In this document: positions 1,962 through 51,681 of the stretch, piece by piece
Layout of the letters: each line of letters starts with the position of its first letter
How positions within the stretch are numbered: position 1 is the first letter of the stretch
Source of the DNA: an uncultured virus (IMG/VR IMGVR_UViG_3300025684_000756)
Lineage: Duplodnaviria > Heunggongvirae > Uroviricota > Caudoviricetes
Length of the DNA: 64,000 nucleotides
Virus record (IMG/VR): IMGVR_UViG_3300025684_000756
Reading direction: 5' to 3' (one strand)
Notes under the pieces: model-generated
Databases searched by the model: none
The model's input: the letters and a program-made list of their open reading frames with translations, nothing else
What the model was told of the DNA's origin: nothing
Position numbers and translations under genes: made by a program

Positions 1962-2990
1962 ATGTCAATAATAGAAAAACCAACAAAAGATAAAATATTA
2001 ATTGTAAGCGAACCAAGATCAGGATCAACTGCTCTATGGACTTATCTGTGGGCAAGGTATTATCAAAATGGTGTAGGCGGAAAGCCAATGAGTTCTTGGT
2101 TAGAACCTTTTAATTACCAGTTTCATTTAGAATCAAAAACCGACACAGAGGTAAATGAATTAAAAGCAGATTGGTTAATGAGAATGATTTTAAAAAAGCC
2201 AAATAATCCTTGGTTAACCAAAATACTTCTTCCTACATTACTTCCAATTGAACATATACCAATGCATCATAAAGTACTTGCAGAGATAAATGGTAATAGG
2301 ATGCACATTGATAAATGGTTTGAAGACGAAAAGAATCCAACTGAAGATGAATTAAAAGAAAGAACCAGATGCTGGGATATCTATTTTAATGAAATGAAAG
2401 TAAAGACTGTACAAAATAAAGTAGTAGGAGATGTCTATTTTAATGATCCTAGTGTATATAGAATTAAATTGTATAGAAAAGACTTTATAGCATCATTAAT
2501 GTCTACAATGGATTTAAAGATACGTCAGTCAATTAGAAAAGAACAAGGTGAAGAAGATGAAAAACTAGATTGGCATGCAAGAAAAGATGAACTTGATAAA
2601 AGGCCAATATATGAATATCCTGATCTGTCAGATATGTCTACCGCAGAGATAGCTGACTTATGTGGGTTTTGGCAAAAAACATTTTTACGAGAAAATCTAT
2701 TAAGGTTTAATAGCACATCTACTCCTGGTATGAGATTTGATGCTGAATATGCTTATGAAGATATTAAAGATGAATTATTAAATTTTAATCCAGTTATTGA
2801 ATTTGACGAAGATAATCGTATGCACAACGGCAATCGCGAAATGCTTGTAAAGAAGTCTGGCATAACAATAACTAAAAAAGCACAGAACTACCAAGAAACA
2901 TATGAGAGACTTAGTAAGGCATATAGACAATGGCATAAACGTTGGCCAGATATTTGGGAAAAAAGAGGCTTACAAAGATTTAGTGTATAA
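1962..2990 (+). CDS. Sulfotransferase-like protein
   Basis: N-terminal SEPRSGST (PAPS 5'-PSB loop-like), EPF, LYRKD..ASLMS (3'-PB-like). ATG 1962 preferred over TTG 1917. Confidence 0.6.
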   Translation: MSIIEKPTKDKILIVSEPRSGSTALWTYLWARYYQNGVGGKPMSSWLEPFNYQFHLESKTDTEVNELKADWLMRMILKKPNNPWLTKILLPTLLPIEHIPMHHKVLAEINGNRMHIDKWFEDEKNPTEDELKERTRCWDIYFNEMKVKTVQNKVVGDVYFNDPSVYRIKLYRKDFIASLMSTMDLKIRQSIRKEQGEEDEKLDWHARKDELDKRPIYEYPDLSDMSTAEIADLCGFWQKTFLRENLLRFNSTSTPGMRFDAEYAYEDIKDELLNFNPVIEFDEDNRMHNGNREMLVKKSGITITKKAQNYQETYERLSKAYRQWHKRWPDIWEKRGLQRFSV

Positions 2991-2992
2991 CA

Positions 2993-3014
2993 CTTGCGGA
3001 AATTAATCCGCAAG
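2993..3014. terminator. Hairpin between convergent transcripts (probable bidirectional terminator)
   Basis: CTTGCGGA-AATTAA-TCCGCAAG perfect 8-bp stem. Confidence 0.65.
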
Positions 3015-3026
3015 CATACCACATTA

Positions 3027-3140
3027 TTAACTATAATGTACGTGGTGAGATCTACGTCTCGCATTTAAGAATCTGCAAAGCATATCACGACGATATTTTT
3101 TGTAAAGCTTCTTAAATTGATATAGTGTAAATGAATCCAT
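3027..3140 (-). CDS. Unannotated 37-aa basic peptide downstream of glutamine riboswitch
   Basis: MDSFTLYQFKKLYKKYRRDMLCRFLNARRRSHHVHYS*; strong SD AAGGAGG upstream; followed by hairpin. Confidence 0.75.
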   Translation of the reverse strand: MDSFTLYQFKKLYKKYRRDMLCRFLNARRRSHHVHYS

Positions 3141-3165
3141 ATCACATCCTCCTTTTACAAAGAAT

Positions 3166-3215
3166 GCGTTCCTTCGGCTTTCGGCCTACTTCCGTCCTAT
3201 GTTATGGATGAACGT
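3166..3215 (-). ncRNA. Glutamine-I riboswitch (glnA RNA motif)
   Basis: Minus strand ACGTTCATCC-ATAACATA-GGACGGAAGTAGGCCGAAAGCCGAAGGAACGC: P1 CGTTC/GAACG, P2 TCC/GGA, E-loop AGTA/GAA, P3 GGC/GCC. Confidence 0.85.
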
Positions 3216-3220
3216 GCTTT

Positions 3221-3226
3221 TATTTA
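3221..3226 (-). promoter_or_regulatory. T4-type late promoter driving riboswitch transcript
   Basis: TAAATA ends 5 nt before the aptamer's first base. Confidence 0.6.
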
Positions 3227-3254
3227 GCATATAATTATTTAAAAAGGAGCCAGA

Positions 3255-3431
3255 ATGCCTATTCCTGAAAGAATAACAATAACAATAGAGGAGAATAAAA
3301 TGGACGAAGACTTTGATTATATGAAAGAAATGGATCCTAAACAACCTGATATAGTTTATCCTAAAATAAAGATTTGGCATTTAATGCTATTTTTTGCAAT
3401 AGCATTACCAACTGCATGGTATTTTGTATGA
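3255..3431 (+). CDS. Small membrane-anchored hypothetical protein (58 aa)
   Basis: SD AAGGAG; C-terminal hydrophobic helix; not in ORF track. Confidence 0.5.
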   Translation: MPIPERITITIEENKMDEDFDYMKEMDPKQPDIVYPKIKIWHLMLFFAIALPTAWYFV

Positions 3432-3577
3432 ACTGTTATCAATGTCAAACTGAATTAATCGTAGGCGGTGATCACGATTGTGAAGAAGACGAAGATCATT
3501 TAATTGTAACTAACCTAAGTTGTCCTAAATGCGACTCACTGGTTTATGTATATTGGGGATCTAAAGAAGATGCATGA
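3428..3577 (+). CDS. Small Zn-ribbon protein
   Basis: CYQC...CPKC; ATGA overlap with upstream ORF. Confidence 0.6.
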   Translation: MNCYQCQTELIVGGDHDCEEDEDHLIVTNLSCPKCDSLVYVYWGSKEDA

Positions 3578-3899
3578 CGGGCCGGATACAACACTATATT
3601 CTATAATAGGATTATTAATTATATTTGTCCCTGCAATCTATTGGGTATATAGATGTAAAAGAGACCGCCCAGAAGACTATGCACACTTCTATGCTAAAGA
3701 TGAGATAGGACCAGATAAGCCTAAAAAGATGTTAAGTTGGGAAGGTGCTCTCTATATATTATGGAATTGGAAAACATATCTATTATATACATTAATGATT
3801 GTAAGTTTCTTTCTTTGTTGGTATGAATTAACCTTTGCAGAAGCATTAGTTGCACCCATTTTTGTTTGGGTATTATCTAAACTAGGTAAACTATTTTAA
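3570..3899 (+). CDS. Hypothetical membrane protein
   Basis: Multiple hydrophobic segments. Confidence 0.5.
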   Translation: MHDGPDTTLYSIIGLLIIFVPAIYWVYRCKRDRPEDYAHFYAKDEIGPDKPKKMLSWEGALYILWNWKTYLLYTLMIVSFFLCWYELTFAEALVAPIFVWVLSKLGKLF

Positions 3900-3917
3900 T
3901 GATAATCAAATAAAAGG

Positions 3918-3946
3918 TTGACTTATGGATCTTTATATGTTATAGT
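3918..3946 (+). promoter_or_regulatory. Sigma70-type (early) promoter
   Basis: AAAAGG-TTGACT-17nt-TATAGT, TG extension. Confidence 0.8.
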
Positions 3947-3975
3947 ATTAACATAATAAAAATATAGGAGCAAGC

Positions 3976-4110
3976 ATGTTTACTATAATCGCAATATTGG
4001 CATTTGTCGCAGGCATATATGCAATAAAAGCAGACCTTAATGAAGGCTATGCTTATTCTTTAATTGGATTAATAGTAGCATGGTTGATATGGATGCAGTA
4101 TGTTGGTTGA
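3976..4110 (+). CDS. Small 2-TM protein (44 aa)
   Basis: SD AGGAG; hydrophobic; not in ORF track. Confidence 0.5.
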   Translation: MFTIIAILAFVAGIYAIKADLNEGYAYSLIGLIVAWLIWMQYVG

Positions 4111-4197
4111 TGAACCTTTAAATTTACAAGCAATAATCTCTCTTTTACTAGTAGTCGGTATTATGGTTTATGTTATAATTGGTAATTGGCGTAACAA

Positions 4198-4701
4198 ATG
4201 AAGCCTATTAAAATTTACGAAACAACATTAAAAGATGTCTTATTAGATAATCCACAAGGTAGTTATATCTACAGAATAATGTTTAATGATGATATTCCTT
4301 TTTATGTTGGTATAACACTTAAAGGTGTTAAAGATAGATTTAAAACACATATAGCAAAGTTTGCAGGTATTAAAAAATATAACGATAGACCTAAATGCCA
4401 AGAAATGGTATTTGAAAGTAAAGAATTAAAATTTAAATGTATTGGTAGACAAACATATGGCTACAATACTATTCGTAATATATTAAAAAAGAATAAAATA
4501 AATTACGATATGCTTAATGCAAAAGTAATATTAGAACAATTTAGTGAGGAACCATTAAATGATTATGGAACTGATATTGGTAAATTAACTAATAAATTTT
4601 ATTTTGAAAAATATGAATCTAATATTATTGAAAAAGAATTACCATTAGCAAATGATGAAACTATTCATTTGGCTAATCAACAAATAATGGAGAACAAGTA
4701 A
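4198..4701 (+). CDS. GIY-YIG-like endonuclease
   Basis: YIY...FYVGIT...R...H, C-terminal E...P..N. Confidence 0.6.
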   Translation: MKPIKIYETTLKDVLLDNPQGSYIYRIMFNDDIPFYVGITLKGVKDRFKTHIAKFAGIKKYNDRPKCQEMVFESKELKFKCIGRQTYGYNTIRNILKKNKINYDMLNAKVILEQFSEEPLNDYGTDIGKLTNKFYFEKYESNIIEKELPLANDETIHLANQQIMENK

Positions 4702-7523: not shown

Positions 7524-7576
7524 ACTGATATTTATAATTGGTATCTTTAGTTGGAATAACCGATATACATAAGTGT

Positions 7577-8017
7577 ATGTTTATTCGTAACGTTGAACAC
7601 CTGTTGACAGGATTTGTGTTTTTATTAGTAGGAACGTTCTTTGGCGCATATGGATTACTCTTTTACGAAACAGGAACAATAGAAGAAATGGGTCCAGGGT
7701 GGTTTCCTTTCTTTATTAGTCTTGGTTTAATAGTACTAGGTGTAATACAAGTGTTAAGATCTATAGCCACAACAACATACGGTGTTGTTAGTTTTGAGAT
7801 TGCTAGACCTATTTTTATCACAGCATTGATTATAGGAATGTCTTATGCTTGGCCGTATATTGGTGCCGCTACTGCATTGGGATTAATAATGAGTGGTAGT
7901 GGATTACTTAATCCGAAATATGAACTCAAATGGTTTCTAGTAAGTTGGCTTTTTATTATAGCACTACTAGTGGCATTTAAATATGGCTTAGGAATGAGTG
8001 TTGTAATATGGAACTAG
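7577..8017 (+). CDS. tctB: Tripartite tricarboxylate transporter small subunit TctB
   Basis: 4-5 TM; G...MGPGWFP motif; directly upstream of tctA. Confidence 0.75.
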   Translation: MFIRNVEHLLTGFVFLLVGTFFGAYGLLFYETGTIEEMGPGWFPFFISLGLIVLGVIQVLRSIATTTYGVVSFEIARPIFITALIIGMSYAWPYIGAATALGLIMSGSGLLNPKYELKWFLVSWLFIIALLVAFKYGLGMSVVIWN

Positions 8018-9471
8018 TATACTTAGGAATTGAAACGGTCTTTTCCAATTACACTTGGCTGTACTGTATCTTTGGTATTGTACTAGGAACACTTGTAGGT
8101 GTATTACCAGGGCTTGGTCCTACTGCTACAATTAGTATGCTACTACCAGTAACATACGGACTTGGTCCAATACCAAGTATTATAATGTTAGCAGGAATAT
8201 ACTACGGATCACAATACGGCGGAAGCACTACTGCAATATTACTAAACACACCTGGCGAGAGTAGTGCAGTAATGACTTGCATAGACGGAAACAAAATGAC
8301 TAGAAAAGGCAAAGCAGGACCGGCAATATTTGCCGCAGGCTTTAGTTCTTTTATTGCTGGTGTGTTTGCTACGATACTATTGGTAACGTTATCACCTATG
8401 CTAAGTGTACTTGCATTAAAGTTTGGACCAGCAGAGTATTGTGCATTGATAGGTTTGGGCTTTTTAAGTGTTGGCATATTGACAACAGGAGATATTTTTA
8501 AAGGGATAGGCATGTGCTTTATTGGTGTGCTTATAGGAACTATAGGAACAGATATACAAACCGGGGTAATACGTTTTGCGTTCTTTGATGAACTAGAAGA
8601 CGGTATATCGTTTCCTATTGTTGCTATTGGATTATTTGCATTTGCGGAGATCATTAAGAACATAACTAAAGATGAAGCAATGCAACTATACAAAGGAACT
8701 ATTCAACTATTTCCAAGTAAAGAAGAATTCAAACGTATTATTCCACCAAGTATAAGAGGATCCTTTATTGGATCTTTCCTTGGACTAATCCCAGGAGGCT
8801 CAAGTACTATTAGTTCTTATGCGGCCTATGCTATAGACAAGAAGTATGGCAACAAAGATGCTGAATACGGCGAAGGTGCTATTGAAGGTGTAGCCGCTCC
8901 TGAGAGTGCAAACAATGCCGCAAGTCAAACAGGCTTTATTCCATTATTGTCATTGGGCATTCCGGAAAATGCTACAATGGCACTAATGCTAGGTGCATTG
9001 TTGCTAACAGGTATTGTACCCGGACCAGATATTGTTAGTAGAGAACCTGAACTGTTTTGGGGACTGGCAATTAGTATGTTGTTTGGTAATTTACTGTTGG
9101 TGATACTTAACATTCCTTTTATTAAGATATGGGTAACAGTATTGCGTATTCCTTACAATACATTGTATCCTATTATAATTGCAATTTGTTGTATTGGCAT
9201 TTACTCAATTAATAGCAATGTAAATGATGTTGTGATAACTGCCGTGCTTGGACTTGCAGGTTATGTATGTTTAATGTTACGATTAGAAGTAGCACCGTTG
9301 ATGTTAGGACTTATACTAGGTCCTATGTTGGAAGAATACTTTAGACGAGCAATGATGTTTAGCGATGGATCGTTTATGATTTTTGTAGATCGTCCTATTG
9401 CATTCACACTAATACTTTGTGCAGGTGCTCTTGGAGCATACGGACTCTACAATACTTTAAGAAATAAGTAA
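8008..9471 (+). CDS. tctA: Tripartite tricarboxylate transporter large subunit TctA
   Basis: GVLPGLG, YYGSQYGGSTTAILLNTPG, GVAAPESANNAA, PLLSLGIP motifs. Confidence 0.93.
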   Translation: MELVYLGIETVFSNYTWLYCIFGIVLGTLVGVLPGLGPTATISMLLPVTYGLGPIPSIIMLAGIYYGSQYGGSTTAILLNTPGESSAVMTCIDGNKMTRKGKAGPAIFAAGFSSFIAGVFATILLVTLSPMLSVLALKFGPAEYCALIGLGFLSVGILTTGDIFKGIGMCFIGVLIGTIGTDIQTGVIRFAFFDELEDGISFPIVAIGLFAFAEIIKNITKDEAMQLYKGTIQLFPSKEEFKRIIPPSIRGSFIGSFLGLIPGGSSTISSYAAYAIDKKYGNKDAEYGEGAIEGVAAPESANNAASQTGFIPLLSLGIPENATMALMLGALLLTGIVPGPDIVSREPELFWGLAISMLFGNLLLVILNIPFIKIWVTVLRIPYNTLYPIIIAICCIGIYSINSNVNDVVITAVLGLAGYVCLMLRLEVAPLMLGLILGPMLEEYFRRAMMFSDGSFMIFVDRPIAFTLILCAGALGAYGLYNTLRNK

Positions 9472-48030: not shown

Positions 48031-48711
48031 ATGTCTTATAATAAAACTAAAACCGATCCCGTTCTGGGACAATCAATCCACGAATATCTAGTTAAGCAAG
48101 GAGTTGAAACTCCGACTATAGATAACAATCTAAGTCGTACAGACAAGATTGAAATAATTGAAAAACACTTCATTAAAATTATGGAAGCATTAGGACTAGA
48201 TCTAACAGATGATAGTTTAATGGATACACCTAAGCGAGTTGCTAAGATGTATGTAAACGAAATCTTTTGGGGTTTAGACTACGAAGCATTTCCTAAATGT
48301 ACAGCCGTAGACAATAAAATGAAATATGATGAAATGGTTGTAGAACGTAATATTAATGTTCAAAGTAACTGTGAACATCATTTTGTTATTATTGATGGAC
48401 TTGCTACAGTAGGTTATATTCCTAATCAAAAAGTATTAGGGTTATCTAAAATTAATCGTATTGTAGAATACTTTGCTAAACGTCCTCAGATTCAAGAACG
48501 TTTAACAGAACAAGTATTTCATGCTTTACAAGCTATCTTAGAAACTGAAAGTGTTGCGGTAGTTATTGATGCACAACATTATTGTGTTAAGTCTCGTGGT
48601 GTCGAGGATACTGGCAGTTCTACTGTTACTAGTAAACTAGGCGGTGTATTTAAATCCGACCCAGCTGTTAGAACTGAATTTATGAATATCTTTAATAAAC
48701 CCAAGAACTAA
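48031..48711 (+). CDS. folE: GTP cyclohydrolase I
   Basis: TPKRVAKMY, CEHH, GLSK..R, RPQIQERLT, H.C...RG. Confidence 0.96.
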   Translation: MSYNKTKTDPVLGQSIHEYLVKQGVETPTIDNNLSRTDKIEIIEKHFIKIMEALGLDLTDDSLMDTPKRVAKMYVNEIFWGLDYEAFPKCTAVDNKMKYDEMVVERNINVQSNCEHHFVIIDGLATVGYIPNQKVLGLSKINRIVEYFAKRPQIQERLTEQVFHALQAILETESVAVVIDAQHYCVKSRGVEDTGSSTVTSKLGGVFKSDPAVRTEFMNIFNKPKN

Positions 48712-49103
48712 TGACTAAAATATTTGAAAGTCCTGATAAAGGAAAAACAGTATATTCTAGAAAATTTGGAGAACAGGATATGTCTAAACGTAAACTTGAG
48801 GTGTCATCTACTGTAACATTTGACGATACAGGTTCCAATGAAACAATTGGTACAGTACCTGTGCTCACAACAACGGAAGACATTGGCTGGAATAATAGTC
48901 ATGCATTTGCTCCTGTATATAACGAAAGTAGCGAAGCTATTAACAAGATTAACAAATCGTTAGATGCTATTAATAAACGCCTTGCTATTCTAGAACCCAA
49001 CTTAGAATTAAATGAAAAGTTTGAAGGACTAAAACAATTATACCAAGAGTACAAAGCAATGGAAAAACTACTATCAGGACCTACTAACAACGAAGAGGAA
49101 TAA
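48711..49103 (+). CDS. Hypothetical protein
   Basis: IFESPD.GKTVY.R; C-terminal coiled coil. Confidence 0.6.
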   Translation: MTKIFESPDKGKTVYSRKFGEQDMSKRKLEVSSTVTFDDTGSNETIGTVPVLTTTEDIGWNNSHAFAPVYNESSEAINKINKSLDAINKRLAILEPNLELNEKFEGLKQLYQEYKAMEKLLSGPTNNEEE

Positions 49104-49107
49104 ACAT

Positions 49108-49656
49108 ATGCAGAAGATGTTTCTAGACCAAGTACAAGTTGATAATGCAATACAGGATATTGTAAGTCAAATGTATAAAGACCAATGGAGACCAGACTAT
49201 ATAGTTGGCATTACAAGAGGTGGGTTATATCCTGCTCTTATAATGAGTCATCAATACGAATTGCTTATGCATACTTTAGATGTTAGATTACGAGACGGTA
49301 CATCTACTAATGAAAGCAACTGTTGGATGGCTGAGGATGCATTTGGTTATATACCTGAATCAGCACAACCTATCTTCAAGTCAAGGTGGGATCCTAGTAG
49401 AAGAAAGAAGATTCTTATTGTAGATGATATCAATGATACTGGTGCAACATTTGAATGGATTAAAGCTGACTGGAGAGCTGGCTGTATGCCTCAAGAACAT
49501 GATTGTTGGAATGCTATATTCGGTAATAATGGTAATGTAAGGTTTGCTTCGATAGTAAACAATTTGAGTAGTGATATCAATATTAACTATACTTCAATTG
49601 AAATTAATAAAGCAGAGAAAGACCATTGGATTGTCTTTCCATGGGAGACAAAATAA
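49108..49656 (+). CDS. Purine phosphoribosyltransferase (Gpt-like)
   Basis: GITRGG, ILIVDDINDTGAT, WIVFPWE. Confidence 0.88.
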   Translation: MQKMFLDQVQVDNAIQDIVSQMYKDQWRPDYIVGITRGGLYPALIMSHQYELLMHTLDVRLRDGTSTNESNCWMAEDAFGYIPESAQPIFKSRWDPSRRKKILIVDDINDTGATFEWIKADWRAGCMPQEHDCWNAIFGNNGNVRFASIVNNLSSDININYTSIEINKAEKDHWIVFPWETK

Positions 49657-49983
49657 GTGCCACATTACGTTGTTGACGCATGTATTAAATGCAAGTATAC
49701 AGATTGTGTAGAAGTATGCCCTGTAGATTGTTTCTACGAAGGTCCAAATATGTTAGTAATCAACCCTGATGAATGTATTGATTGCGGAGTGTGTATTCCG
49801 GAATGTCCGGTTGATGCAATTATTGACGATTATCAAATGAAGGATTATCCTGACAAAGATTGGATTAAGATTAACCATGAGATGTCAGAGCAATGGCCTA
49901 ACATTACAGATCAAAAAGATCCTTTGCCTGAGGCAGAAGAATTTAAAGACACAAAAGATAAAAAGAGTTTAATGGAGAAATGA
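49657..49983 (+). CDS. fdxA: 7Fe ferredoxin
   Basis: [18 protein letters not shown]...CIDCGVC.PECP; GTG start. Confidence 0.92.
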
Positions 49984-50742
49984 TTGGCTATTAACTATAA
50001 CGAGTTAAGAGATTTAATAGATTTAAGTAAATGTCCTCACCTCATTGAAAAATACAAAGGTGTTGTTTCTTTGCCTCTTGACTTAGAACCATTTGTGTTT
50101 GATAACGAAACTGCTTTTTGGGATCTATGGACAAATGAGAATCATGTTGTTTGGAGAAATCATATTGATAGAGGATCTAGTAATTTAACTAGCCCAGAAC
50201 TATCACATACACAATGGCATGGGTTAGCACTACATGAGGACATGGAACTGTACGAACATGGATCTTGGGGTACTAAAATTACCGAAGAGGCTAGAAAAAT
50301 AAGTCCTATTATGGTACAAAGAATGTTCGACGAACTGCCATTTGTTAGAATAAGAAGTATTAGGCTTTGGTCTGCACATAAACAAATACCAGCACACTAT
50401 GATGGTAACATGCCAGACAGTTTAGATGGTAAAATGTTCTTTCCTACAGAAATTCGTATTATGTTACAAGATGATAATCCAAAACCTACATTCTGGCTTA
50501 CTTCTGCTAAAGAGCATAAACCTAATACCGAAGTACCAGCAGATCAAAAGCATTATGTTGTACTACCAGAAGGTACCAATACATTTGCATGGAATAATGA
50601 AGATTACTTGCATGGTGCAGATTTTGATGGATCAAACCGTAAAGTATTGGCAGTAATCAAAGGTTGGGTAGACTTAACAAAATTAGAAACCTTACTTGAT
50701 AAAAGTATTGCAAAGTACCCAGACTTTGTAGTTAAGATTTAG
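49984..50742 (+). CDS. 2OG-Fe(II)/Asp-hydroxylase-like protein
   Basis: IPAHYD...F.WNN...LHGA. Confidence 0.55.
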   Translation: MAINYNELRDLIDLSKCPHLIEKYKGVVSLPLDLEPFVFDNETAFWDLWTNENHVVWRNHIDRGSSNLTSPELSHTQWHGLALHEDMELYEHGSWGTKITEEARKISPIMVQRMFDELPFVRIRSIRLWSAHKQIPAHYDGNMPDSLDGKMFFPTEIRIMLQDDNPKPTFWLTSAKEHKPNTEVPADQKHYVVLPEGTNTFAWNNEDYLHGADFDGSNRKVLAVIKGWVDLTKLETLLDKSIAKYPDFVVKI

Positions 50743-50743
50743 G

Positions 50744-50772
50744 TTGACTTTACAGTTTAAATCTAGTATAAT
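50744..50772 (+). promoter_or_regulatory. Sigma70-type promoter
   Basis: AGG-TTGACT-17nt-TATAAT. Confidence 0.8.
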
Positions 50773-50793
50773 ACGTTATAACAAGGAGAGCAT

Positions 50794-51681
50794 ATGAAAT
50801 ACTATTATAGTGAGATATTTCACAGTATACAAGGTGAAGGACATTATACTGGTGTTCCTACTGCTTGGATACGTTTCTTTTTATGTAACTTACAATGCAA
50901 TGGATTTGGTCAGATAGATCCTACAAACCCTAGCACATATGAGTTGCCTTTTGAGGACTTTGATGTATCTAGTGTAGACAGAGTTGAAGACTTACCTGTA
51001 TGGGACAAAGGTTGCGACAGTAGTTATACTTGGGCAAAGAAGTTTAAAAGCCTAATGGGACATGAAGAGCCTGATGTATTAGCAAATAAAATTATTGATA
51101 TTATTAGAACAGATAGTAATCCAGAAGGACGATTCCTACATCCAGTTTCTCAATATAGACAACATTTATGTATTACAGGTGGTGAACCACTTATGATTAC
51201 TGGACAACGTGCAGTTATTGGAATATACAATGAACTGCATAGACAAAGTAACTTACCAGGTAGTATGACATTTGAAACTAATGGTACACAGAAACTAAGT
51301 GACGATTTTAAGAATTGGGTAGAGTCAATTGATACTGAAATATTTTTTAGTGTCAGTCCAAAACTATGGACAGTAGCAGGTGAGAAGCCCGAGAAGGCTA
51401 TTAAGCCAGACAATGTAGCAGAGTATTATAATTTATCTAAAGCAGGTCAATTAAAGTTTGTAGTAGGTAATAAGGAGGAACATTGGCAAGAAATGGAAAG
51501 TGTAATTGCACAATTTAGAAAAGCAGGAGTAAAATGGCCAGTTTGGGTTATGCCTGTTGGTGCAAGAGAAGAAGAACAAACTGCAACGGCAGGTGCTATT
51601 GCAGAAAGAGCATTCAAACGAGGATATAATGTGGCGGCAAGAGTGCATGTTTACTTGTTTGGAAATGCTATAGGAACATAA
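50794..51681 (+). CDS. queE: 7-carboxy-7-deazaguanine synthase
   Basis: EIF.SIQGEG..TG.P...IR...CNLQC(insert)CDS, TGGEP, ETNGT, SVSPKL, KFVV, R.H. Confidence 0.9.
   Translation: MKYYYSEIFHSIQGEGHYTGVPTAWIRFFLCNLQCNGFGQIDPTNPSTYELPFEDFDVSSVDRVEDLPVWDKGCDSSYTWAKKFKSLMGHEEPDVLANKIIDIIRTDSNPEGRFLHPVSQYRQHLCITGGEPLMITGQRAVIGIYNELHRQSNLPGSMTFETNGTQKLSDDFKNWVESIDTEIFFSVSPKLWTVAGEKPEKAIKPDNVAEYYNLSKAGQLKFVVGNKEEHWQEMESVIAQFRKAGVKWPVWVMPVGAREEEQTATAGAIAERAFKRGYNVAARVHVYLFGNAIGT

Follow-up and report, generated by a model that had tools for sequence, protein, structure and literature searches.

A putative glutamine-responsive leader and micropeptide gene in an uncultured marine jumbo phage

We analysed a 64,000-nucleotide (nt) stretch of DNA, referred to here as the window, from an uncultured virus of the class Caudoviricetes (IMG/VR record IMGVR_UViG_3300025684_000756). 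Between two plus-strand genes of the window lies a compact minus-strand unit that consists of a TAAATA hexamer, a 6-base spacer, a riboswitch aptamer, a Shine-Dalgarno (SD) sequence, a 37-codon open reading frame (ORF), and a hairpin (Table 1). An earlier note, made from the letters of the DNA, had read these elements as a hidden transcription unit with a late promoter, a glutamine riboswitch, a microprotein gene, and a terminator. Every one of these elements is present on the minus strand, and the SD sequence and the ORF of 37 codons plus stop lie exactly where they had been placed. The observation as a whole is confirmed. Its central claim, that a glnA-type glutamine riboswitch of a phage controls an unannotated microprotein, is supported at the sequence level by the aptamer match, a covarying SD helix, and an ORF of coding type.

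Table 1. Coordinates of the window cassette and of the related cassette in Methylophilales phage Melnitz (MZ577097.1; positions are those of locus L248)
Feature	Position	Strand	Basis
TAAATA, promoter-like -10 element (context GCTAAATA)	3226-3221	minus	sequence
Type-1 glutamine riboswitch aptamer (glnA RNA, RF01739)	3216-3163	minus	cmscan against Rfam
P1 helix	3214-3210 with 3171-3167	minus	cmscan alignment
P2 helix	3208-3206 with 3197-3195	minus	cmscan alignment
P3 helix	3186-3184 with 3178-3176	minus	cmscan alignment
Predicted expression platform helix: 3168-3159 (CGCAUUCUUU) with SD strand 3152-3143 (GGAGGAUGUG)	3168-3143	minus	folding and covariation
Shine-Dalgarno AAGGAGG, 7 nt ahead of ATG	3154-3148	minus	sequence
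37-codon ORF and stop, ATG at 3140	3140-3027	minus	ORF reading
11-pair hairpin	3017-2990	not assigned; common to both convergent units	folding
Melnitz permuted tmRNA	Rfam end 1422		Rfam
Melnitz aptamer (RF01739)	1430-1478	plus	52.8 bits
Melnitz linker, CACUU with GAGUG (anti-SD/SD)		plus	sequence
Melnitz peptide gene, 32 codons	ATG at 1501 (unit 1430-1599)	plus	same family as window peptide

Scanning against Rfam with cmscan, a covariance-model check of the kind that the note had named for its aptamer, returned RF01739 at 55.5 bits, far above the gathering score of 35 (E = 1.7e-9). The match covers model positions 1 to 53 of 53, is not truncated, and is the sole Rfam match in the 64-kb window; its boundaries agree within three bases with the 3215-3166 of the note. 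The conserved aptamer stretches CGGAAGUAGG and CGAAGGAACGCA are intact. Further, the three-helix junction is present, with joining strands CGGAAGUA and GAAGGAACGCA in which every conserved joining base equals the consensus, and P1 and P3 consist of standard pairs. We infer from this sequence that the window aptamer would bind L-glutamine.

The 37-amino-acid (aa) product is strongly basic (isoelectric point 10.4; net charge about +7.7), and AlphaFold2 predicts that it forms one long helix over residues 3 to 34, with a mean predicted local distance difference test (pLDDT) score of 84.6. To place it among relatives, we used a strict aptamer-core pattern, which finds at least 120 viral loci in IMG/VR; the aptamer, SD, and ORF counts given below come from the matches listed. 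The ORF behind the aptamer has a median length of 38 aa (range, 18 to 81; 107 complete ORFs). Among 109 peptides behind viral aptamers, a set chosen by the aptamer alone and without regard to the peptides, phmmer matches the window peptide to six (E = 5.6e-5 to 3e-3). The resulting family alignment (A2) has 16 members, is gapless over about 28 residues with the consensus MDxFTxWCFxKLIKxHRxxKINxIL, and keeps ORF length at 28 to 41 aa. Searching 1.84 billion proteins with a profile built from A2 yields 15 cluster representatives (E ≤ 1e-3), all of them 29 to 64 aa long, and one of these (P0004) is 61% identical to the window peptide. The three matches that look longest merely start upstream, inside the aptamer, and no longer or fused forms were seen among the 15.

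Codon comparison of 15 family genes shows a synonymous share of differing codons of 20% in frame versus 6 to 8% in the other two frames, with third codon positions changing most. RF01739 scores above its gathering threshold at all 15 family loci scanned (44.6 to 61.1 bits). Judged by these sequences, the 37-aa ORF is a genuine gene. It belongs to an unnamed family whose members are basic single-helix peptides and which appears, within the samples searched, only in marine phages and always behind an RF01739 aptamer. A peptide pattern search of species-representative bacterial genomes returned no family member, and 49 peptides behind bacterial aptamers gave no match to the A2 profile (best E = 0.046); both are samples and not a census. 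Against 50,697 phage records, tblastn of the window peptide gave a chance-level match only (E = 9), and blastn of 2600-3700, 2990-3230, and 3138-3218 gave no useful match. No description of the family was found in the open literature searched, exclusive of supplements.

The note had proposed a search for the same cassette in related phages, and the cassette does recur in other phages. A strain variant, L121, is 98.7% identical to the window over 3.2 kb, and its cassette is identical except for one base between the stop codon and the hairpin. A more distant cassette, L123, combines a peptide of 65% identity with a 59.2-bit aptamer, an ATAAATA followed by 6 nt, and a hairpin with a T-rich tail; like the window cassette, it is antisense to all its neighbours. 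In L124 the peptide is 46% identical and the aptamer scores 54.5 bits, and the cassette is co-oriented with its neighbours. Because the gene neighbourhoods of L123 and L124 are unrelated, the cassette moves as a unit.

The family extends to a cultured phage. The peptide of locus L040 matches four isolates of Methylophilales phage Melnitz at 62.5% identity, and the Melnitz cassette resembles that of the window in its RF01739 aptamer, in the anti-SD/SD design of its linker, and in the 32-aa peptide encoded downstream (Table 1). It differs in that the aptamer follows the Rfam end of a permuted transfer-messenger RNA (tmRNA) by 8 nt and has no TAAATA. Melnitz is a 141-kb T4-like phage, and the window phage is much larger (see below). 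The plus-strand 32-codon ORF is unannotated in the Melnitz record, where an opposite-strand ORF at 1524-1625 is annotated instead; an annotated late-transcription coactivator adjoins the cassette. Buchholz et al. (2022; PMC9004378) describe the Melnitz tmRNA as riboswitch controlled. The anatomy of the locus suggests that the switch controls the micropeptide rather than the tmRNA. Similarly, at three further family loci the aptamer follows the end of a tmRNA by 1 to 6 nt, and at two loci tRNA genes adjoin it. Loci adjacent to tmRNA or tRNA genes (L040 at 134-631, L075 at 260-630, L042 at 597-1046, and also L066 and L073) are without TAAATA, and ARAGORN tmRNA calls in such loci run over the aptamer. 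Among the matches listed, tmRNA genes occur in 4 of 120 viral locus flanks and tRNA genes in 7 of 120. In these phages the aptamer RNA may be released by 3' processing, and in the window by initiation at TAAATA.

Between aptamer and ORF, the window sequence offers a means of coupling the two. In an RNA that starts at 3216, the minimum-energy fold contains a 10-bp helix (3168-3159/3152-3143) in which SD bases G3152 to G3148 are paired with a probability of 0.91 to 0.99. The helix takes in the last two bases of the P1 3' arm together with C3166, the base after P1. An SD sequence and a small ORF lie directly downstream in 109 of 115 full-aptamer locus-strands (window included), and the flank and SD strand change together across phage loci (CACCU/GGGUG, CACUU/GAGUG or AAGUG, CAUCU/AGAUG, and CGCCU/AGGUG, with CAUUCU and AGGAUG as the pair of the window itself).

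To put numbers on this, 59 of 90 leaders (the window and 58 of 89 distinct others) were aligned after hand-picking for a CAN..NUG linker, a choice that favours the helix and that excluded the remaining 31 leaders with other linkers. In this alignment 87.9% of the cells of the 6-pair core are paired, versus 37 to 65% when the partner columns are slid, and 25 cells are changed on both sides, versus 7.8 in shuffles, a count reached by 0 of 500 shuffles. Pair 13:39 is CG in 47 leaders, UA in 6, UG in 5, and AU in 1, and pair 14:38 is CG in 37, UA in 18, and UG in 4, neither with an unpaired cell. A duplex test over all 109 loci is free of the linker-selection bias: the duplex of a flank with its own SD is stabler than that with the SD of other loci in 85 of 109 (Wilcoxon p = 8e-11), although the loci are related to one another, and both the covariation and the duplex figures overstate independence. 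The predicted SD helix with its covarying core would thus be an expression platform that links the aptamer to the downstream gene. Inside the SD-clamp strand (GGAUGUGA), in the 3145-3147 region, an ATG is followed directly by TGA, out of the peptide frame. This arrangement, which L123 has at the corresponding position, probably arises as a by-product of the sequence of the helix.

Upstream, TAAATA is present at the position given in the note, 6 nt before the first P1 base. It occurs within 40 nt upstream of 73 of 122 aptamers (window included), against a background in which 3.6% of random 40-nt windows from those loci hold TAAATA at all. In 61 of the 122 it ends 5 to 9 nt before the first P1 base (CGTTC), and the most frequent spacing, 6 nt, is that of the window. 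In the window itself, 17 of 34 plus-strand TAAATA copies lie no more than 60 nt upstream of a plus-strand ORF start, in positions that account for 6.7% of the window; among the 15 hexamers of this composition, TAAATA has the highest gene-upstream share and the lowest total count. Because it is concentrated just upstream of ORF starts, this phage uses TAAATA as a gene-upstream signal. A sigma-70 consensus scan gave chance-level results only.

T4-type late promoters have a -10 element resembling TATAAATA, no -35 element, and about 6 nt between the element and the transcript start, and they go with a phage-encoded late sigma factor of the gp55 type and a coactivator of the gp33 type. The context GCTAAATA matches TATAAATA, which we take to be the T4 late consensus, at 6 of 8 positions. 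By analogy, TAAATA may act as a T4-type late promoter, and it is this motif from which the late timing proposed in the note would follow. The predicted transcript start, about 3216-3214, coincides with the 5' edge of the aptamer. Six RNA runs hold small shares of 2000-4500, and contigs of four of them were placed on the window; these cover 2114-2508, 3456-3571, and 4196-4380 and not the cassette, which is evidence neither way.

At the 3' end, the 8-bp hairpin of the note is real, and its reading as a terminator does not stand. The G-C-rich core (3014-3007/3000-2993; loop UUAAUU) extends to 11 pairs, with an energy of -20 kcal/mol (z = -5.1) that 0 of 200 shuffles equal. A terminator scan found 0 sites in 2700-3600, terminator consensus scans were at chance level, and an intrinsic (Rho-independent) terminator was rejected for want of scan sites and of a U tract. 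The hairpin directly abuts the stop codon of the convergent plus-strand ORF at 1917-2990. Since it has no U tract and abuts this convergent stop codon, we regard it as a shared 3' hairpin and not as a demonstrated terminator; its role is probably that of a common 3' end or an insulator. Of 104 such cassettes, 45 are followed by a hairpin, versus 90 of 520 background windows, and hairpins with a T-rich tail follow 21 of 104 versus 24 of 520.

The best explanation of the locus, and one that we consider probable, is that the minus strand carries a self-contained, monocistronic transcription unit of the phage, with a glutamine-ON SD clamp and a basic helical micropeptide as its product. Transcription from the T4-late-type motif would begin with the first base of the type-1 glutamine aptamer. 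Without glutamine, the bases 3' of P1 (3168-3159) would pair with the SD strand (3152-3143) and keep ribosomes from entering. At high glutamine, the aptamer would close, and P1 together with a long-range pair of the C after P1 would claim the base of that helix; the SD would then be freed and the 37-aa peptide translated. The peptide would most likely bind a host or phage macromolecule in the nitrogen-replete infected cell. The direction of switching is taken from the gifB leader of Synechocystis sp. PCC 6803, for which Klahn et al. (2018; PMC6212724) propose that the ribosome-binding site is blocked by the sequence that begins with the C after P1 and that glutamine melts the resulting helix. 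The same account shows expression induced by glutamine or ammonium and reporter output induced by nitrogen. Because the proposed gifB mechanism matches the layout found here, we read the window element as a translational switch that glutamine would turn ON.

Besides the selection and relatedness of the leaders behind the covariation figures, several points weigh against this explanation. Ligand binding, the direction and timing of switching, and all of the peptide's function are inferred. P2 is short, with three firm pairs and one non-standard pair flagged by cmscan. Plain thermodynamic folding fails to recover the aptamer, and a fold of 3218-3120 pairs the SD with the P1/P2 5' arm, which makes the exact OFF structure provisional. 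CTAAATA is not enriched across the window (15 found, 23.4 expected), and no late-transcription gene of the gp55 or gp33 type was seen among the ORFs scanned in the 64-kb window. The tail of the 3' hairpin has 3 T in 8 bases. The window peptide is without a match in Pfam, NCBIfam, PHROGs, the PDB, and the ESM Atlas, where the best score (0.76 in the Atlas) and the best profile search value (E = 1.3 in the PDB) give no lead, and its role is a guess.

The fold just mentioned opens another way of building the switch, in which the 5' half of the aptamer (P1/P2 5' arms, 3214-3206) sequesters the SD, or in which expression is turned OFF by glutamine. In the lowest-energy fold of 3218-3120 (-20.2 kcal/mol), CACGUUC-A-UCC is paired with GGAGGAUGUG, and in type-2 glutamine riboswitches the SD lies inside a ligand-stabilised pseudoknot, which would suggest OFF logic. 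However, that fold is unremarkable in energy (z = -1.35; 19 of 200 shuffles as good), the RNA that starts at 3216 uses the 3' flank instead, and the P1/P2 5' arm is nearly invariant, whereas it is the variable 3' flank that covaries with the SD strand. Reporters of both riboswitch types also show higher expression with more nitrogen in the results of PMC6212724. We consider this arrangement unlikely. A different question is whether the RNA itself is the functional product and the ORF incidental, with the RNA acting as an antisense or regulatory RNA against plus-strand read-through or as a glutamine-binding decoy. In the window and in L123 the unit runs antisense to every neighbour, the hairpin is shared with the convergent gene, and the window and L123 agree in all of the first 31 nt of the ORF. 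Yet a strong SD at the right spacing recurs at 109 of the 115 listed loci, the amino acid sequence is conserved with an excess of in-frame synonymous change, ORF length is held within the narrow range of the aligned family, and the L124 and Melnitz cassettes are co-oriented with their neighbours, all of which make an incidental ORF highly improbable.

If the peptide is the product, it could be a phage analogue of IF7/IF17, made at high glutamine to shut down host glutamine synthetase (GS). Cyanobacterial members of the riboswitch class mainly control gifB/IF17-like proteins of the DUF4278 family, as PMC6212724 reports, and the window peptide is likewise small, basic, and arginine rich. Of eight YRG-type peptides tested from behind viral aptamers, seven match DUF4278 (PF14105) at E < 0.01, three of them above the Pfam cut-off. 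This positive control also speaks against the analogue: neither the window peptide nor any of the 16 A2 members matches DUF4278 at E values up to 10, nor do they match NCBIfam, and because the YRG peptides match DUF4278 and the window family does not, the two are distinct. Further, the same family occurs in Melnitz, whose OM43 host lacks glnA according to the authors of PMC9004378; if OM43 is indeed without glutamine synthetase, the family cannot act through GS there. We regard a role as an inhibitor of GS as very unlikely. The gifB comparison made in the note therefore holds for the RNA and fails for the protein, which is not DUF4278/IF17-like, and the association with nitrogen-metabolism genes or gifB/DUF4278 proteins that is typical, if not obligatory, for the class was not seen here.

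A wider reading is that marine phages, from 140-kb T4-like pelagiphages and methylophages to this jumbo phage, share a portable cassette (a promoter or RNA 3' end, a glutamine aptamer, an SD clamp, and a micropeptide), that the peptides are phage-specific effectors dosed by the pool of host glutamine, and that the window family acts on the gene-expression machinery and not on nitrogen assimilation. The last part is suggested because tmRNA or tRNA genes of the phage often lie immediately ahead of the family and because one phage that carries it has a host that reportedly lacks GS. Taken together, these proposals are tentative and rather doubtful. If they were true, the switch would couple late infection to the nitrogen status of the host. 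Melnitz offers a tractable phage-host pair for asking what a nitrogen-gated micropeptide does.

Returning to the preferred glutamine-ON clamp, its closest described counterpart is the gifB leader (PMC6212724), which, like the window, places an RF01739 aptamer in the 5' leader directly before a small-protein gene and has a proposed platform in which the sequence from the C after P1 pairs with the ribosome-binding site until glutamine melts the helix. Unlike gifB, the window switch is phage borne and has a T4-late-type motif upstream instead of an NtcA-regulated promoter; its RNA would begin at the aptamer itself, and its product is an unrelated 37-aa peptide with a predicted helix and not a DUF4278 protein. 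The DUF4278 units of cyanophages and picocyanobacteria ("YRG," Downstream-peptide, and Yfr6) also place a glutamine aptamer before a very short conserved ORF, and such units are described as common in marine sequence data (PMC2864571, PMC6212724, PMC5473149). In contrast to the YRG/Yfr6 units, the window has no YRG repeat, no DUF4278 match, and an aptamer of type 1 instead of type 2.

Glutamine riboswitches of phages are already in print. A 2017 survey judged riboswitches rare in phages and gave two glutamine aptamers, both from cyanophages (PMC5473149); others are mentioned in T4-like cyanophages (PMC9964418) and in Melnitz, Mosig, and pelagimyophage contigs (PMC9004378). The RNA of the window is thus a known class with a known type of platform. 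What appears to be new, as far as sequences can tell, is its occurrence in a jumbo phage, the evidence for a transcript that begins at the aptamer, the covariation support for a phage SD clamp, and a micropeptide family, unnamed and apparently restricted to phages, one of whose genes had been overlooked in a cultured phage. Because at least 120 viral loci were found and 109 of the 115 listed share the small-ORF layout, glutamine sensing seems to be a common means of regulation in marine phages, among which a jumbo phage can now be counted, and its regulated products are tiny proteins that gene callers miss.

Besides DUF4278/YRG, at least six further small-ORF families lie behind viral glutamine aptamers (L001 to L120, among the matches listed). 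They include a family of about 64 aa with NGNGTSGY, one of about 50 aa ending in DPRLQ(K/G)I, one of 32 aa beginning MKTKNNWQL, and one of 45 to 53 aa that ends in NPFYP and usually follows tandem aptamers; none of those tested matched Pfam. At three family loci other structured RNAs follow the micropeptide gene, namely manA RNA (RF01745) in L045 and L057 and freshwater-2 RNA (RF02980) in L057 and L068, and the cassette of L045, L057, and L068 therefore lies in a region rich in RNA genes (about 90-450 in each locus).

The aptamer pattern is also found at no fewer than 123 loci in species-representative genomes (L125 to L247). By label, the 123 listed comprise 60 from Alphaproteobacteria, 28 from Gammaproteobacteria (mostly SAR86), 27 from cyanobacteria, and 8 others; the alphaproteobacterial ones come mostly from single-cell genomes, many of them SAR11-like, plus SAR116 and Pelagibacterales. 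All five of the listed bacterial-genome loci that were checked with Rfam score above the gathering threshold. Some of the bacterial-genome loci have phage-like leaders and small ORFs of other families. This non-cyanobacterial distribution, as far as the sequences and labels indicate, differs from the abstract of PMC6212724, which states that the riboswitch is exclusive to cyanobacteria, and fits the mention of RF01739 in SAR86 and Pelagibacter metagenome-assembled genomes in PMC12379486. Glutamine riboswitches may thus be worth considering in hosts beyond cyanobacteria, such as marine Alphaproteobacteria and SAR86. Many of the listed alphaproteobacterial copies have an SD-less flank (GCATGC ... 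AGCATG), and L202 precedes an ammonium-transporter-like ORF.

The window has 31 to 38% G+C and carries nearly all of its genes on the plus strand. It encodes a family-B DNA polymerase (PolB), a UvdE endonuclease, a carbamoyltransferase, a GMP-reductase-like protein, several radical-SAM proteins, and a GH19 lysozyme-like protein. The best tblastn matches of PolB are to phages of 337 to 490 kb (Sinorhizobium phage Phosso, 48%; Agrobacterium phage Atu_ph07, 46%), followed by Vibrio and enterobacterial jumbo phages at 41 to 43%. Because PolB is closest to phages of this size, the source is, by this sequence comparison, an uncultured marine jumbo phage. Fourteen DNA runs from 13 marine or viral metagenome studies each contain half or more of the words sampled from 2000-4500. 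The nearest record (G001, a fragment of 45 kb with a completeness rating of 13%) lacks both the aptamer and the cassette region. The window PolB was searched for in the three bacterial genomes that hold L214, L179, and L222 and is absent there, and these genomes are therefore not relatives of this phage.

Elsewhere in the window, 7538-9471 encodes TctB- and TctA-family membrane subunits of a tripartite tricarboxylate transporter (TctA, 478 bits), an unusual auxiliary pair for a phage. At 48031-51681, a QueE-like radical-SAM gene is grouped with a phosphoribosyltransferase-like ORF and a gene for GTP cyclohydrolase I, and this grouping suggests a 7-deazaguanine pathway. Close to the cassette of L123, too, there is a GTP cyclohydrolase I (36% identical).

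The cassette borders a variable region. The window and L121 diverge just past it, where a short stretch (3340-3426 in window coordinates) is replaced, and L121 carries about 1.1 kb missing from the window between 3571 and 3955. Next to TAAATA, only 28 nt (3227-3254) separate it from the ATG (3255) of a divergent plus-strand ORF of 58 codons, which has its own AAGGAG. A TATAAT-like hexamer on the plus strand overlaps the promoter region of the cassette, and the two units may thus be in competition for the same DNA.

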